From the NCBI GenBank assembly GCA_963836205.1, contig CAWIIV010000011.1:135903-199902 (forward strand): 64,000 nt of DNA, given 5' to 3'. The position numbers were made by a program, and so were the translations under genes. Origin of the DNA: an uncultured Acidimicrobiia bacterium. GTDB taxonomy: Bacteria > Actinomycetota > Acidimicrobiia > Acidimicrobiales > AC-14. Under the pieces are notes generated by a model. That model ran no database searches. It saw only the letters and a list, made by a program, of their open reading frames with translations, and had not been told where the DNA came from. Numbering within the stretch: position 1 is the first letter of the stretch; every line of letters starts with the position of its first letter. Positions 44,371 to 54,857 of this stretch are shown in pieces.

Positions 44371-47300
44371 ATGGGTGAGACAGGTCCGGAGCAGGACAAC
44401 CGAGGCCCGCTTTCGATCGCCGGGGCCCTCCTGGCCAGCCTGCTGGCCTTCCTCGGGGGGGCGACGGTCTCGGCCACGGCCGCCGCCGGGCAGGTCACCA
44501 CCACCAGCACGCCCGCCACGACGACGAGCACCGTCGCCGCCCAGACCGGGGCCGGGTCGTCGACCGGGCGGTCGAACAGCGAGGCCAACTCCGGGGCCAG
44601 CTCGGCCGGCTCCGGCGAGTCAGGCGTCAGCGGGACGGCAAACAACGAAACCGAGATCGTCGCCGCCGGCGGCGAGGGCGGGAACGGCGGGGCGGCTGCG
44701 CCGATCGCCGTCGGTGGCGGCGGTCTCCTCGGCACCGGCATTCCCGGCAGCAACGCCGGCGCCGTGGTCGCGGTCGGCAGCGCATCCGGCGGCGACGGCG
44801 GGGCGGCCATCGTGGCCGTCAGCCCGGCTGCGGTCTCGGGCACCACGGGCGACGCCACCGGCCAGTCGTCGGCCACCAACAGCGGCGCCACCGGCAAGGC
44901 CACGTCCGCCGCCACCGCCGATCCCGCCTCCAGCTCCGGCAACACCGGTGGTACCGGCAACACCGGCTCCGCCACCCCCAACCCCTTCTCGGTCAGCACC
45001 GGCCTCCTCAACATCACCCCCGTCGCCACCGACCAGGGTGGAGTCGGCAGCGCCGGCCAGGCATCGGGCGGCAACCCCCTCGGCGGCCTCGGAGTCGCCG
45101 CCGGGTCCGCTCCCGGCCCCAACCCCTCCCTGCTGAGTGCAAGCGCCCTCGGCGGGCCCGCCACCAGCAGCGGCTCCGGCTCCACCGGGGCGTCGGGACA
45201 GGTCGCGTCCATCGGCTTCGCCGGCAGCTCGGCGAACACCGGGGCCCAGTCCGACGTCACTGCCCGCTCGGGGGCCACCGGCGCGGCCGAGAACGACACG
45301 TCGGTGGTAGCGGTGGCGGGCGACGGGGGCGACGGCGGCATCGTCATCCCGATCGCGGTGGGCGGCACCACGTCGAACACGATCGTCGGCGCGCCCGGCG
45401 CCGCCGGCCCTGCGGGCGGGGCCGGTACCGGCGTCGACGGCGGTCCCGGGACTCCGGGTGTCCCTGGCGTCGGCATCGACGGTGCCGTTGGCGCGGACGG
45501 GGCGGTCGGCGCGGGTGGGGCTGCGGGCGTCCCGCCGGCGCCGGGTGGCGCGGGAACCCCCGGCGGCGCGGGTGGTGCCGGCGGCGCGGGTGGCCCGGGG
45601 GCGGGCATCGCGGGCGGTGTCGGCGGCGCCGGTGGTGCCGGAGCAGGCACGGCCGGTGGTGCGGGCGGCGCCGGCGGGTCGGCCAGCGGCAGCCCCACGG
45701 CGGTGGGTGGCACCGCGGTCGCCACCGGATCGGCAGATGGCGGGGACGGCGGGGCGGCCACCGTCACCTTCAACAGCCCGACGGCATTGTCCGGCAACTC
45801 GGGGGCGACGTCGGCCCAGGGAAGCGCCACCAACTCGGGCGACACCGGCGACGCGTCGTCCACCGCCACCGCCAGTCCCACCGCCGTCTCGGGCGACACC
45901 GGGCGCTCGGGCGACACCGGCGACGCCGAGTCCAGCCCCACCGCGGTCAACTCCGGACTGCTCGGGGTGGCGGCTGCCGTCGGCGGCCCGGCCACGACGG
46001 GCGCAACCGGCGACACGGGCAACACCGGTGCCGCCACCGCCCTCGGATCTGCGACCAGCGCTGCCAACAGCGGAGCAGACAGCGTCGTCGACTCGGTGTC
46101 GGGCGACACCGGCGCGGCCACCAACGACGTCACCGCGCTGCTCCTGGCCGGCTCCGGCGGCGATGGCGGCGTCTCGGTGCCGGTCGCCCTCGGCGGCGAC
46201 GCCAGCAACGTCCTGGCCGCAGGCGCCGGCGGCACGGGTGGCGCCGGCGGTCTCGGCACCGGCGGCGCGGGCGGTGCCGGCGGTATCGGTGGCGCCGGAA
46301 CCGGCTGGTGCCGGCGGCGCGGGTGGTGCCGGCGGCGCGGGTGGGGCCGGCGGCGACAGCGCCGGCGTCACGGTCGTCGTGGGCGATCCTGCGCCCGTCA
46401 TCGGTCCCATCGTCACCGGCGGGCCCGGCGGTGCCGGCGGCGCCGGCGGAGCGGGCGGTGTCGGTGACACCGGTACGGGCGGCGCGGGCGGGGCCGGCGG
46501 TGCCGGCGGTACGGCCACCGGCGGCGCGGGCGGTGCCGGCGGTGCCGGCGGTACGGCCACCGGCAGCCCCACGGCCATCGCCGGCGGGGCGGTGTCGGTC
46601 GGCAGCGCCGACGGCGGCAACGGCGGCGAGGCCACGTTCACGGCCAGCCCCGACGCCCGCTCGGGCGCATCGGGCGCGTCCAGCGCGCAGTCTTCGGCCA
46701 CCAACACCGGTGACACCGGGGCCGCGTGGTCCAGCGCCACCTCCAGCCCCACCGCGATCACTGGCGACTCCGGCGACTCCGGAGACTCCGGCGATGCGTC
46801 CACCGACCCGTCCGCCACCAACACCGGTCCGGTCGGGGTGGCGGTCGCCGTCGGCGGCGACGCCACCTCGGGCCTCACCGGCCTCACCGGCGCCACCGGC
46901 GACGCCACCGCGCTCGGCTCGGCCGTCTCCTTCGCCAACTCCGGCGCCTCCGCCGACGGTGGCTCGGCCTCGGGTGCCACCGGCGCGGCCGTCAACGTCC
47001 TCGACGTGCTCGTTGTGGCCGGTGAGGGCGGCGACGGTGGCGCGGCCATCCCCGTGGCCCTGGGCGGCGACGCCACCAACGTGATGCTCGGCGGCGCGGG
47101 CGGTGCCGGCGGCACTGGCGGCGCGGCGACGGGCGGGGCCGGAGGCGCCGGCGGCGCCGGAGGCGCAGGGCAAGGCGGCGACGGCGGTGGCGGCGGGACG
47201 GGCGGCGGCGGCGGTGCCGGCGGTACGGCCACCGAAGTCTCCACCGTTGTCAACACCATCAACGTGGCCGGCGCAGACGCCACCACCGCGGTCACGATCG

Positions 47301-53300: not shown

Positions 53301-54857
53301 GTGGCGAGGGCGGTGCCGCCGTGTCCCTGGCCGCGGGTGGCCCGGCGGTCAATGTGCTGGTCGGAGGAGCCGGTGGTGCAGGCGCAGGTGGAGGCGCCGG
53401 GTTCGGCGGCTTCGGCGGCTCCGGTGGCACCGGCGGTGCCGGCGGCGGCGGCTCCGGTGGCGCAGGTGCTGCGGGCGGAGCGGGTGGTGCCGGCGGCGCC
53501 GCGGCATCGGCCATCGTCGTCGTGGGCGACCCCGCGCCCATCATCGCCCCGATCGTCACGGGTGGCGCCGGCGGCGCCGGCGGTGCGGGCGGTGCCGGCG
53601 GTGCGGGCGGAGCCGGTTTCGGCGGCTTCGGCGGTGCCGGCGGTGCGGCCGGTTCCGGCCTGGGCGGTGCCGGTGGTGCGGGCGGTGCCGGCGGTGCCGC
53701 CGGCGGCAGTCCCGCGGCGGCGAGCGGGGTTGCCCTCGCCACCTCCCAGGCCGATGGCGGCGAGGGCGGTTCGGCCTCTATCACCGGCGATCCACGGGCC
53801 GAGAGCGGCAGCTCGGGAGCGGCGAAGTCGCAGGGCAGCGCCACCAACACGGGTGACACGGGCGACGCCGACTCCCGCGCCACGGCCAGCCCGTCGGCAC
53901 GATCCGGCGACTCCGGCCGGTCCGGCGCGACGGGCGATACCAGTGCCGATGTCAGCGCGGTGCAGGGCGGCGCCCTGGGTGCCGCGGTGGCGGTCGGTGA
54001 CGACGCCCAGTCGGGTGCCACCGGCGAGTCCGGCGACACCGGCGACGCCGATGCCGACGGCGCCGCCGACGGCACCGCTAACTCCGGCGCCAAGGTCACC
54101 GCCGCCGCCCAATCGGGCGATACCGGTGTCGCCGCCAACCTGTCCGTCCCGATCATCGTCGGCGGCGACGGCGGCGAAGGAGGGGCGACCGTGGCTGCGG
54201 CGACGCCGGGTGCGGCCGTCAACGCCATCGTCGCCGGGGCCGGAAGCGCCGGTGGCCTCGGTGGTCAGGGCTTCGGTGGCCTCGGCGGTCCCGGTGGCCT
54301 CGGTGGCCCGGGGGCCGGCGGCGCTGGCGGAGCAGGTGGCCCGGGCGGAGCAGGGGGCGCCGGAGGGGCCGGTGGTGTGCCCGGCGCTCCCGGAGCACCG
54401 GGAGGACCTGGGGCCCCAGGTGCTCCGGGCGGCGGTTCCCCGGGAGCCGATGGTGGCATAGGAGCGGTAGGCGCCGGAACTCCCGGTGCCGATGGGGCCG
54501 AGGGGGCAGCCGGGATCGTCGGACCGAGCACAGCCACTGCGGTCACCGGCAGCGCCTTGGCTCCCACCGAGGCCCGCCCCGGCAACGGCTCAGGCCGTCT
54601 CGATCACGTCCACGCCGGTTGCGGTGAGCGGCAGCAGTGGGGCCTCCACCGCTCAGTCGTCGGCCACCAACACCGGCGACACCGGCGACGCCACCGACAC
54701 GGCGACGTCCAGCCCCACCGCCGCTTCAGGCAACAACGGCGACGGCGGCGAGTCGGGTGAGGCCGACGCCTCCACCCACGCCGAGAACTCCGGCCTCGGG
54801 GGCGCCGCCATCGTCGTGGGCGGCGAGGCCGCCACCGGCCGGCCCGAGGAGGACTGA
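44371..54857 (+). CDS. Giant Gly/Ala/Ser/Thr/Asp-rich repetitive secreted protein (about 3,494 aa if two +1 frameshifts near 46306 and 54574 are corrected)
   Basis: GGAG RBS, ATG and a signal-like N-terminus (LLASLLAFLGGATVSATAAA). The SATN[S/T/D]G motif recurs 12 times at about 820-950 bp spacing across three reading frames, with GGAGGAGG tracts and SGDSGDSG triplets between. Confidence 0.85.

Follow-up and report, generated by a model that had tools for sequence, protein, structure and literature searches.

How does a secreted-looking chain of roughly 3,500 residues, made of long glycine-rich repeats, fold, and what would such a protein do at the surface of an actinobacterial cell? The question is raised by a gene lying between rplA and rplJ in the window, the 64,000-nucleotide stretch of DNA analysed here, on whose + strand all features described below are found. 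In the reading that we consider fairly probable, the product of about 3,490 aa would be exported by the Sec route, would run back and forth as a meander of 24 arms, and would form a self-supporting extracellular sheet or fibre. The evidence comes from the arrangement of the repeats, from covariation within and between them, and from comparison with orthologs, paralogs and known repeat proteins.

One gene in three reading frames

The giant repeat gene occupies 44371-54857, directly downstream of rplA (ribosomal protein L1, 43370..44164; Pfam PF00687, E 5.5e-68) and directly upstream of an open frame with rplJ (ribosomal protein L10, 54916..56310; PF00466, E 5.1e-25), and the order nusG-rplA-giant gene-rplJ is common to two genomes with orthologs, G016 and the same-genus G003. 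Translation of 45458-54760 gives a Gly/Ala/Ser/Thr-rich repeat protein, as the preliminary description had it, although the coordinates given there took in only the middle one of the three frames over which the gene extends. Frame 1 (44371..46303, from translation and module HMM matches; third-position GC 0.84-0.93 between 44258 and 46357) starts with an ATG and a signal-peptide-like segment judged by eye (about 44371-44481), and continues through a Thr/Pro-rich linker and a first Y-like arm into the first module, M1, and most of M2. Frame 2 (46298..54595; 2,766 aa; third-position GC 0.77-0.97) holds the remainder of M2 and then M3-M11, and frame 3 (54594..54857) the last half module, an X arm and turn A, with the stop codon, so that the C-terminus, ...NSGLGGAAIVVGGEAATGRPEED*, comes directly past a turn A. 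At each junction an extra T, whose position is exact only to a few bases, shifts the frame by +1: one at 46306 (ACCGGC[T]GGTGCC), missing from the G003 and G016 orthologs in DNA alignments with L039 and L038, and one at 54590 (AACGGC[T]CAGGCC), missing from the aligned G003 ortholog, which is a single uninterrupted frame and stops at the same point of the period as the window protein. The two shifts are most likely read or assembly errors in this assembly, or else very recent lesions.

Modules, turns and mirror symmetry

The protein contains 11.5 modules of about 299 aa, each running from Gly tract through X arm, turn A, Y arm and a second Gly tract to turn B; its autocorrelation peaks at a lag of 299 aa (identity 0.426), followed by lags 3 and 598, with 0.247 at lag 14. 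A module HMM places M1 at about 44707-45540, with a large insertion in its turn A, and M2, mostly in frame 1, at 45598-46329; the others are M3 (46472-47368), M4 (47369-48268), M5 (48269-49165), M6 (49166-50083), M7 (50084-50950), M8 (50951-51847), M9 (51848-52744), M10 (52745-53614) and M11 (53615-54388). Two alternating turn types had been proposed, and an alignment of 12 modules displays both exactly so. Turn A, (T)ATNTALLGAAVAIGG, with SGDSGDSG before it and SGDTGxTG after it, occurs in 10 of the 12 module rows, being degenerate in M11 and absent from M7; turn B is a T/V/I-rich element of 26-31 aa with GGAGG/FGGFGG tracts on both flanks.

Arm coordinates follow a unit model in which X is columns 5-84 and Y columns 101-175. 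M9 may serve as the example, with its X arm at 51947..52186 (80 aa), turn A at 52187..52234 (TATNTALLGAAVAIGG), Y arm at 52235..52456 (74 aa in the model columns), and the Gly-rich linker to the X arm of M10 at 52463..52828, around a turn-B core at 52607-52690 (TELESLVNTVDIVGGAATINVTVVSIVS). The other X arms lie at 45697-45939, 46571-46810, 47468-47710, 48368-48607, 49265-49504, 50183-50422, 51050-51289, 52844-53083 and 53714-53953; the other turn A sites at 45940-45987, 46811-46858, 47711-47758, 48608-48655, 49505-49564 (M6, 4 aa longer), 50423-50440 (M7, turn deleted), 51290-51337, 53084-53131 and 53954-54001; and the other Y arms at 45988-46209, 46859-47080, 47759-47980, 48656-48877, 49565-49786, 50441-50662, 51338-51559, 53132-53353 and 54002-54223. 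Further linkers, with their cores in brackets, are 47090-47449 (47231-47314), 47987-48352 (48137-48214), 48884-49249 (49028-49108), 49793-50170 (49937-50029), 50672-51037 (50813-50893) and 51569-51931 (51710-51793), besides a VVVGDPAP-type linker at 53360-53695 whose core is only partly delimited. The Gly tracts before and after the core measure 47/45, 47/46, 50/46, 48/47, 47/48, 48/46 and 48/47 aa in seven linkers of the window, and the core is centred to within 5 aa in 44 of 52 linkers (3.0 expected), between flanking tracts of 39-58 aa, which for the Gly tracts is indirect evidence of the meander discussed below. These tracts, only about a third of each module, repeat every 14 aa, with FGGFGG; at the DNA level, TRF finds periods of 9, 18 and 42 nt.

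A mirror scan compared, position by position, the reversed sequence on the left with the sequence on the right. Its mean score is 144, and maxima of 198-255 mark the centre of each turn A and each turn B, 141-157 aa from one to the next. The count and length of arms given in the preliminary description hold, there being 24 arms with 141-157 aa between turn centres; so does the symmetry of the protein as a whole, in which VVVGDPAP(V/I)IxPIVTGG recurs in turn B of M2 and M10, as it does in the orthologs, and Pro/Gly-rich loops in M1 and M11. The mirror symmetry claimed for each module holds for the order of the segments, the positions of the motifs and the lengths of the arms (X 80-81 aa, Y 78 aa) but not for the residues: X arms bear no significant similarity to reversed Y arms (global BLOSUM62, z -0.8 to 2.5 against shuffles, 10 modules), and forward X-Y comparison scores about as well as reversed.

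Covariation within modules

Mean-field direct coupling analysis (DCA) was applied to homologous X-turnA-Y units, in sets of 319 (Meff 256) and 594 (Meff 470), and covers the X and Y parts of about 85 aa, out of some 150 residues per arm. In the smaller set 11 of the 20 top pairs fall within an anti-diagonal band of ±5 (1.26 expected), and in the larger 18 of 20, 26 of 40 and 38 of 88 (1.9, 3.9 and 8.5 expected), counts which, like the bootstraps below, overstate independence because the units are paralogs and orthologs of one another. Metagenome contigs alone (275 units) replicate the anti-diagonal, with 16 of 20 and 28 of 40 pairs in the band. In the 594 units it runs from (86,95) to (6,175), that is, from the tip of turn A to the bases of the arms, and the top couplings keep to this one line across separations of 5 to 169 columns, those at (86,95) and (88,93) marking the hairpin tip. 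Paired columns compensate in size, as at (74,110), where T-S (165) and S-T (98) outnumber S-S (27) and T-T (20), and the table for (25,152) reads A-V 69, V-A 40, A-A 63, G-V 16 and V-G 12. Natural deletions have turn A at their centre (columns 78-107, 79-108, 76-105, 86-96, 79-93 and 85-98). A nucleic-acid hairpin was rejected as the source of the pattern, the pairable fraction being at most 0.48 at any register. Covariation thus shows each X arm to be antiparallel to, and in register with, the following Y arm over the whole of about 85 aa.

Structure models and the course of the arms

AlphaFold2 (AF2) gave models of low confidence (pLDDT 53, pTM 0.27; pLDDT 60.9, pTM 0.40). In the one of 476 aa, strands are placed, at low confidence, as mirror pairs about residue 90 (6-8/172-176, 12-17/163-169, 26-35/145-152, 42-63/117-138 and 81-89/95-99); Gly tracts and turn B have a pLDDT of 41-52, and the Gly tracts carry no DSSP elements. 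Foldseek returned no PDB match at E <= 0.001, and the best structural matches by VIA-align, 2pne_A (Z 3.2, rmsd 1.9 over 57 residues) and 7jjv_B (Z 2.4), lie below the noise level stated for the tool.

A second reading, possible though doubtful, keeps the meander but gives it a compact body: the paired arms would bend together at conserved Gly/Asn corners, with the Gly tracts forming small polyglycine-II sandwiches, and the protein would be a layered block or short fibre rather than a ribbon or tube of 40-45 nm. Corner motifs (GGxGG; ATN-TG in X opposite AN-SG in Y) do lie opposite each other in the pairing, at about columns 20/158 and 49/128, and it is there that the low-confidence AF2 model breaks each arm into 5-7 strands. 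The 14-aa FGGFGG period resembles the helices of 3-4 triplets with a hydrophobic edge described for PGRS sandwiches in PMC9436101, and short polyglycine-II helices in a compact knob would fit it as well as an extended arm; it even tells for short helices with turns, and against a single extended arm. The two structural matches, weak as they are, are polyproline-II bundle antifreeze proteins, and off-band anti-diagonals appear at sums of 254-260 (z about 2.5). However, such secondary contacts are not significant after some 100 bands tested and no diagonal occurs near a separation of 85, the structural matches do not rise above noise, and the AF2 strands share the low confidence of the model.

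Coupling between neighbouring modules

Y_n was compared by mutual information with the X arm of module n+k. Its own module (k=0) gives 0.203, the following one (k=+1) 0.189 and the preceding one (k=-1) 0.091. The value at k=+1 exceeds that at k=-1 in all 200 bootstraps of each of three data sets, among which are genomes and metagenome contigs taken separately. Joint DCA of two modules (242 pairs, Meff 201; background 0 ± 0.25) gives mean couplings of 1.34 for X_n-Y_n, 1.17 for Y_n-X_(n+1) and 0.13 for X_n-Y_(n+1). Single Y residues are coupled to both flanking X arms, column 110 with 74 (3.58 to X_n, 3.86 to X_(n+1)) and 124 with 58 (3.29, 3.53). Each Y arm therefore has the next module's X arm as a further partner, with the register unchanged. 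That Y_n is as tightly coupled to X_(n+1) as to X_n, and not to X_(n-1), fits a meander and speaks against both isolated hairpins and a parallel solenoid. With one residue coupled to both neighbours, these pairings imply a continuous, accordion-like sheet, so that for the X and Y parts the in-register meander first proposed from reading the sequence is borne out.

Were the modules instead beads on a string, each X_n would pair with its own Y_n alone, the Gly tracts would be flexible spacers, and the Y_n-X_(n+1) coupling would record duplication history. Adjacent modules are indeed alike (same-column mutual information 0.155 at lag 1; same-column couplings averaging 0.56 in the joint DCA), the Gly tracts have low pLDDT, and part of the k=+1 signal could come from duplication of Y_n together with X_(n+1); but separate hairpins predict equal values at k=+1 and k=-1, not 0.189 against 0.091, and a direct Y_n-X_(n+1) coupling at the within-module level, with X_n-Y_(n+1) at background, makes them very unlikely. 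It is scarcely plausible that the modules stack in parallel, as a beta-solenoid or in cross-beta fashion, each forming one very large rung (a beta-arch with X facing Y) in register as in curli-like or amyloid-like fibres: face-to-face packing inside a rung would also yield the X-Y anti-diagonal, and the Ser, Asn, Gly and Ala content and same-column couplings between adjacent modules would suit it, yet stacking predicts that Y_n couples symmetrically to X_(n+1) and X_(n-1), contrary to both mutual information (0.189 and 0.091) and joint DCA (1.17 and 0.13), and a Y residue coupled to both X_n and X_(n+1) fits lateral neighbours in a sheet, not a one-sided side chain. Very little credence attaches to a mostly disordered, low-complexity secreted spacer or decaying pseudogene whose repeats have no defined fold, since against the two frame shifts, the G001 and G006 orthologs split into 3-5 frames, the low AF2 confidence and the extreme Gly/Ala/Ser content stand a dN/dS of 0.23-0.25 over about 2,600 codons (0.245 over 2,636 against G003, 0.225 over 2,589 against G016), one-to-one module number and lengths in these two orthologs, the intact G003 frame, compensatory residue pairs unexpected for a disordered chain, and the many columns that do not vary in a 388-aa paralog (11 sequences, 72% mean column identity).

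Comparison with known systems

Nothing in Pfam, NCBIfam, PADLOC or the PDB sequences matches the window protein; no PDB chain was matched by sequence at E <= 1, and its N-terminal 644 aa matched no Pfam family at E <= 0.01, nor at E <= 5. A zig-zag of very long paired arms seems to match no described protein family. The PGRS domains of mycobacterial PE_PGRS proteins have been modelled as polyglycine-II (PGII) sandwiches, with PGII helices of 3-4 triplets and a hydrophobic edge, and what PMC9436101 sets out is shared in several respects: origin in exported proteins of Actinomycetota, long GGAGGxGG-type Gly-X-X tracts (here GGAGGx-type triplets, 39-58 aa both before and after turn B), regularly spaced hydrophobic residues (in this protein the FGGFGG of the 14-aa period), tolerance of indels and large paralog families. 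Membership of PE_PGRS was rejected, there being no PE domain and no Pfam match in the N-terminal 644 aa; PGRS moreover offers no counterpart to the covarying arms (Ser/Thr/Ala/Asp/Asn-rich, about 85 aa) or the two turn types, and its helices, as PMC9436101 describes them, are of 3-4 triplets and not tens of residues. The springtail antifreeze proteins (2pne, 7jjv), polyproline-II bundles, likewise have extended antiparallel elements, short turns and Gly-X-X triplets, but according to bioRxiv 10.1101/2023.11.25.568672 they are of 81-126 aa, with helices of about 10 residues in two layers, whereas the elements here are at least 85 aa long, show mostly period-2, beta-like conservation and belong to a chain of 3,500 aa; the likeness implies no antifreeze function.

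Collagen-like adhesins (Scl1/SclA) were rejected, NF038330 scoring 15.7 bits against a cut-off of 400 and only in the Pro/Gly loop of M1. Sortase-anchored Gram-positive surface proteins (LPXTG/LAxTG) share a signal peptide (here by eye), tandem repeats and very large size, and the same genome, which has three sortase genes, encodes a paralog (on G000:C15) whose C-terminus, by eye, is an LAxTG sorting signal: LARTG, then a hydrophobic stretch, then RRRR. Class E sortases recognise LAxTG. The window protein itself differs in ending without a sorting signal (...GGEAATGRPEED*), and its repeat unit finds no match among the known families of adhesin repeats. Beta-solenoids such as curli CsgA, ice-nucleation and insect antifreeze proteins, with rungs of 12-30 aa stacked in parallel, are also secreted tandem repeats rich in Ser/Thr/Asn/Gly/Ala and, as is probable here, all-beta, but the repeat of the window protein is 185-299 aa long and its neighbours are antiparallel by covariation. 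In silk fibroin crystallites the chain similarly goes back and forth in an antiparallel beta-sheet with one Gly/Ala/Ser face; its strands are short, whereas the arms here are an order of magnitude longer, non-repetitive in sequence and conserved in register, with two specialised turn types.

Proposed architecture, family range and export

In the meander that we favour, the 24 long arms would alternate in direction, a Y arm first and an X arm with turn A last, and between these eleven X-turnA-Y modules would be joined by Gly tract-turnB-Gly tract linkers. One edge of the sheet would bear every turn A hairpin, collared by Asp-rich (SGD)n/(TGD)n, and the opposite edge all Gly tracts and turn B; the arms would mix beta segments, with a period-2 Ala/Ser/Gly face, and Gly-X-X triplet segments, and the Gly tracts would either extend them or form small polyglycine-II knobs. 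Of 24 other genomes in the same family of Acidimicrobiales, 20 contain matches (15 of 19 without five unpublished genomes), as against none of 16 genomes from 16 other families of the order, and 1.84 billion representative proteins yield only 85 matches at E <= 1e-3; the protein family would appear to be so far undescribed and, among the genomes searched, confined to one family of Acidimicrobiales.

The 388-aa paralog is exactly two periods long, ends like the giant protein just past turn A, and begins with the arm that would come next after the giant protein's end, so that arms left free at the edges might zip up between molecules just as arms do inside one. It is conceivable, if unlikely, that this amounts to a new envelope fabric, in which each single chain runs to and fro in antiparallel arms of 85-150 residues, from 4 of them to over 100, and paralogs are knit together. 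Small, giant and sortase-anchored members would then make one continuous sheet or closed tube round the cell, with two chemically distinct rims, an Asp-rich turn-A edge and a Gly-rich, amphipathic turn-B edge.

As to function, the protein may be an extracellular structural component of the cell envelope, a self-supporting sheet or fibre, a role suggested by its signal peptide, by very heavy investment in paralogs and by the LAxTG paralog in a genome with three sortases. The window protein seems to be Sec-exported, to judge by eye from an N-terminal segment (MGETGPEQDNRGPLSIAGALLASLLAFLGGATVSATA) with a basic n-region, a LSIAGALLASLLAFLGG core and an ATVSATA end. The G003 and G016 orthologs and the 388-aa paralogs have similar N-termini, and the AF2 model of the 388-aa paralog has a helix at residues 4-29.

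Reading frames and integrity of the giant gene

The window has a G+C content of 0.65-0.79 and carries many long open frames on both strands, among which third-position G+C selects three successive plus-strand frames across the giant gene: the frame of 43366 to about 46350, that of 45458 from about 46350 to about 54200, and that of 54000 onward from there. On translation, one continuous repeat protein crosses all three, with a start at ATG 44371, a signal-peptide-like N-terminus, and a stop at 54857. The preliminary description had placed the repeat protein at 46330-54240; the protein is real, and that span is only the middle frame of a gene extending over 44371-54857. 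Two minus-strand open frames, 44620-50679 (2,019 aa) and 50821-54228 (1,135 aa), were rejected as composition artefacts, codon-position G+C backing the plus-strand frames.

DNA alignment with orthologs from two relatives reveals an extra T at about 46306 (against G003 and G016) and another at about 54590 (against G003). In G003 the ortholog runs uninterrupted in a single frame, from Met and signal peptide through to the same C-terminal end, that of G016 has a frame shift of its own close to its end, and those of two same-genus genomes, G001 (L040, G001:C1) and G006 (L041, G006:C2), are split across 3-5 frames; evidently, this repeat gene is hard to assemble without indels, or is indel-prone. 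Values of dN/dS of 0.245 against G003 (2,636 codons) and 0.225 against G016 (2,589 codons) were obtained for the giant gene, whose product is therefore under purifying selection, and we attribute both shifts to errors in sequencing or assembly, or to very recent lesions. Among the public sequencing runs listed, one DNA run matched the window, sharing 0.06 of its words, while RNA runs gave no match; the contigs of the DNA run were short, and none that carried an indel covered the two shift sites.

Module architecture

Autocorrelation gives a repeat period of 299 aa, and 12 module rows align cleanly, across both frame junctions too. The order within a module is Gly tract, X arm (80-81 aa), turn A, Y arm (78 aa), Gly tract, turn B, and Gly tract; the first arm of the protein is Y-like and the last is an X arm followed by turn A, for a total of 24 arms. 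The module alignment bears out two features proposed from the sequence at the outset, namely two alternating turn types with distinct flanks, and a symmetric placement of turn-B variants, with VVVGDPAP in the second and penultimate positions and Pro/Gly-rich forms in the first and last. Mirror symmetry of each module, proposed at the same time, holds in part: in a reversed-arm scan each turn centre coincides with a peak, at spacings of 141-157 aa, and there is no mirror at residue level, X being no closer to reversed Y than to forward or shuffled Y (not significant). Judged by sequence similarity alone, the mirror is one of segment order and length.

Natural deletions take equal stretches from either side of turn A, and seven short modules, which represent one orthologous event, retain only both arm bases (columns 5-41 and 152-175, 7/7 in a long-gap alignment). 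Of 52 Gly-rich linkers of diverse origin, 44 have the turn-B core at their centre, versus 3.0 expected at random, with a core finder that fails where linkers have no hydrophobic core (genomes G024 and G004). The lengths of the Gly tracts before and after turn B show no correlation (r = -0.03) because they scarcely vary, and the informative feature is the central position of the core. The central modules have odd tips, turn A of M6 (49505-49564) being 4 aa longer and its turn B the longest of all, and turn A of M7 (50423-50440) being lost; these tips and the symmetric turn-B variants could be end effects in a finite sheet, or could reflect a sheet doubled over at its midpoint.

Covariation within and between modules

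Units consisting of X arm, turn A and Y arm were aligned to a fixed 177-column model and subjected to mean-field direct coupling analysis (DCA); HMM iteration drifted to 199-232 columns, losing hits, and the first, fixed models were used instead. Units covering <85% of the model were excluded before every DCA (number not recorded). With 319 units (effective sequence number, Meff, 256), one anti-diagonal band held 11 of the 20 strongest pairs, versus 1.26 expected, and the permuted unit, Y-turn B-X, placed 13 of 20 on the anti-diagonal, versus 1.24 expected. Enlarging the set to 594 units (Meff 470) gave counts of 18/20, 26/40 and 38/88, versus 1.9, 3.9 and 8.5 expected, and an unbroken coupling path that starts at the hairpin tip (86,95) and reaches the arm ends at (6,175); for the 275 units of the metagenome contigs alone, the counts were 16/20 and 28/40. 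Pair tables show physical-looking compensation (Ser-Thr/Thr-Ser, Ser-Ser/Ala-Ala, Ala-Val/Val-Ala/Gly-Val). A nucleic-acid stem was checked as the source of the Ser/Thr covariation because such swaps could mimic U-A/A-U pairs, and was rejected, the fraction of pairable bases being at most 0.48 at any register. Secondary contacts that would point to extra folding were not significant, the best bands having z of about 2.5-2.9, a result that leaves room for further folding.

Coupling between modules bears on how the arms are joined. Mutual information between Y_n and X_(n+k), where k is the module offset, over 20 band pairs was 0.203 (k=0), 0.189 (k=+1), 0.091 (k=-1), 0.091 (k=+2) and 0.054 (k=-2), values to be read with the proviso that the units are mutually related and that co-duplication of adjacent arms may inflate the k=+1 signal. 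The difference between k=+1 and k=-1 was positive in 200/200 chain bootstraps with all data, with genomes only, and with metagenome only. Were the modules separate hairpins, Y_n should be equally related to X_(n+1) and X_(n-1); the observed values of 0.189 and 0.091 make this arrangement improbable. A parallel stack of modules, which predicts the same equality against the same two values, is less credible still.

Joint DCA of two consecutive units gave within-module means of 1.34 (X_n-Y_n) and 1.16 (X_(n+1)-Y_(n+1)) and between-module means of 1.17 (Y_n-X_(n+1)) and 0.13 (X_n-Y_(n+1)), relative to a background of 0 +- 0.25, and in it a single Y residue couples to both neighbouring X arms. The antiparallel meander put forward in the preliminary description is thus upheld for the X and Y parts of the arms, Y_n coupling to both X_n and X_(n+1) with X_n-Y_(n+1) at background: such double coupling is what arms lying side by side in a single antiparallel sheet would show. 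The deletions around turn A, the short modules, the centred turn-B core and the mirrored strands of the AlphaFold2 model lend it additional support.

Structure models and arm length

AlphaFold2 gave overall low confidence for the 388-aa paralog described below (pLDDT 53, 68 alignment rows) and for a 476-aa piece of the window protein (pLDDT 60.9, 150 alignment rows), with pLDDT 70-87 at the arm bases only, and neither predicted model is adequate for a fold claim. Strands in the low-confidence 476-aa model are mirror-placed around residue 90. Searches with the AlphaFold2 model returned no match at E <= 0.001 with Foldseek against the PDB and nothing above noise (Z 3.2 or less) in a wide VIA-align search, whose top rows were polyproline-II (PPII) bundle antifreeze proteins below noise level (Z 3.2 and 2.4). 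The case illustrates that covariation within repeats can reveal how a low-complexity protein is threaded where AlphaFold2 gives no confident model.

In the Gly tracts FGGFGG recurs with a 14-aa period, resembling the short helices and hydrophobic edge of PGRS polyglycine-II sandwiches, as portrayed in PMC9436101, and the antiparallel rule of PPII bundles, as set out in bioRxiv 10.1101/2023.11.25.568672. The 40-45 nm first estimated for an extended arm is therefore an upper bound; the pairing shown by covariation covers about 85 residues per arm.

Paralogs and family range

The window's own genome holds, on another contig, a 22-kb paralogous locus on the minus strand (G000:C15:235408-257669; L023, L024), with modules of about 185 aa without Gly tracts and open frames of 3,790, 2,280, 1,762, 1,502 and 702 aa, reflecting several genes, additional frame shifts, or both. 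The C-terminus of one product consists of LARTG, a hydrophobic stretch and RRRR, and the next product begins with a signal peptide resembling that of the window protein. A smaller, conserved paralog in this genome, of 388 aa (L022:1310-2473; G000:C15, about 322310-323473), is divergent from trmD-rplS and has orthologs in 10 relatives (55-79% identity). Its signal peptide is followed by exactly two periods (Y-X-Y-X), that is, four arms, beginning at the Y-arm start and ending, at ...ATNTALLLGFAIAFDP, within turn A, and it offers a natural minimal (four-arm) version for experiments.

Of 24 other genomes in the family, 20 contain matches (15 of 19 without five unpublished ones among the 20), and none does among 16 genomes that represent 16 further families of the order. 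Another module type, in L042 (G024:C130) and L036-L037 (G004:C14), has modules of about 250 aa and Gly linkers with a 4-aa centre (e.g., DFGI) and no turn-B hairpin, in open frames of 6,539 and 9,272 aa, the latter the longest family frame among the matching genomes. A metagenome scan added 184 family stretches, and an exhaustive profile search of 1.84 billion representatives recovered only 85 proteins, mostly fragments, at E <= 1e-3. A homolog search from the 388-aa paralog gave 5 matches, a number uninformative about range since low-complexity words saturated the 8,000 candidates. Pfam, PADLOC and PDB sequences gave no match to the giant protein, NCBIfam none above cut-off (one hit at 15.7 bits versus a cut-off of 400), and the ESM Atlas only unnamed Actinomycetota clusters, with a low recognition value for the query.

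Relation to known systems and possible function

PE_PGRS proteins are defined by a PE domain, which the giant protein lacks; it likewise lacks what defines collagen-like adhesins, sortase substrates or parallel solenoids. It comes closest to PGRS domains, PPII-bundle antifreeze proteins and sortase-anchored repeat proteins, together with beta-solenoids and silk crystallites. The open-access literature searched yielded nothing on a protein of this kind in Acidimicrobiia, nor on meander repeats with long arms, and from computational evidence we rate the architecture of the giant protein as new. Should the covariation reading hold, this architecture would be without a described counterpart: tandem modules of 185-299 aa, with arms in register with both sequence neighbours over at least 85 residues, would form one sheet of 24 very long antiparallel elements, and of many more in paralogs. 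It would widen the bounds for possible beta and polyglycine-II structure, lend itself as a natural template for sheets or tubes on the nanometre scale, and represent an unknown envelope component in a widespread, uncultured Acidimicrobiia group.

An extracellular envelope structure is what the giant protein and its paralogs point to, because of the signal peptide (judged by eye), the devotion of about 1% of the 4-Mb genome to the family (the 10.5-kb gene, the 22-kb locus and the small paralog), and the occurrence of an LAxTG-type sorting signal in one paralog, alongside three sortase genes in the genome. LAxTG is the motif used by class E sortases.

Genomic neighbourhood

Pfam matches give the order tuf, nusG, rplA, giant gene, rplJ, rpoB and rpoC, and the placement between rplA and rplJ recurs in two relatives, G016 and G003. 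The 10.5-kb gene separates two genes that normally adjoin (window 43370-56310). No consensus promoter or terminator was found in 43900-55300, and an Rfam scan of 36000-64000 detected no L10 leader, the sole RNA families matched being three tRNAs (38761-38998 and 41815-41887) that flank tuf, before the nusG region. An aminotransferase (PF00155) and an EamA transporter (56790-58923) lie between the rplJ region and rpoB, and the minus strand at 27540-33359 encodes a 1,939-aa multidomain protein with Ser/Thr kinase, AAA_16 ATPase, TPR, GAF, PAS and histidine kinase (HisKA and HATPase_c) domains.
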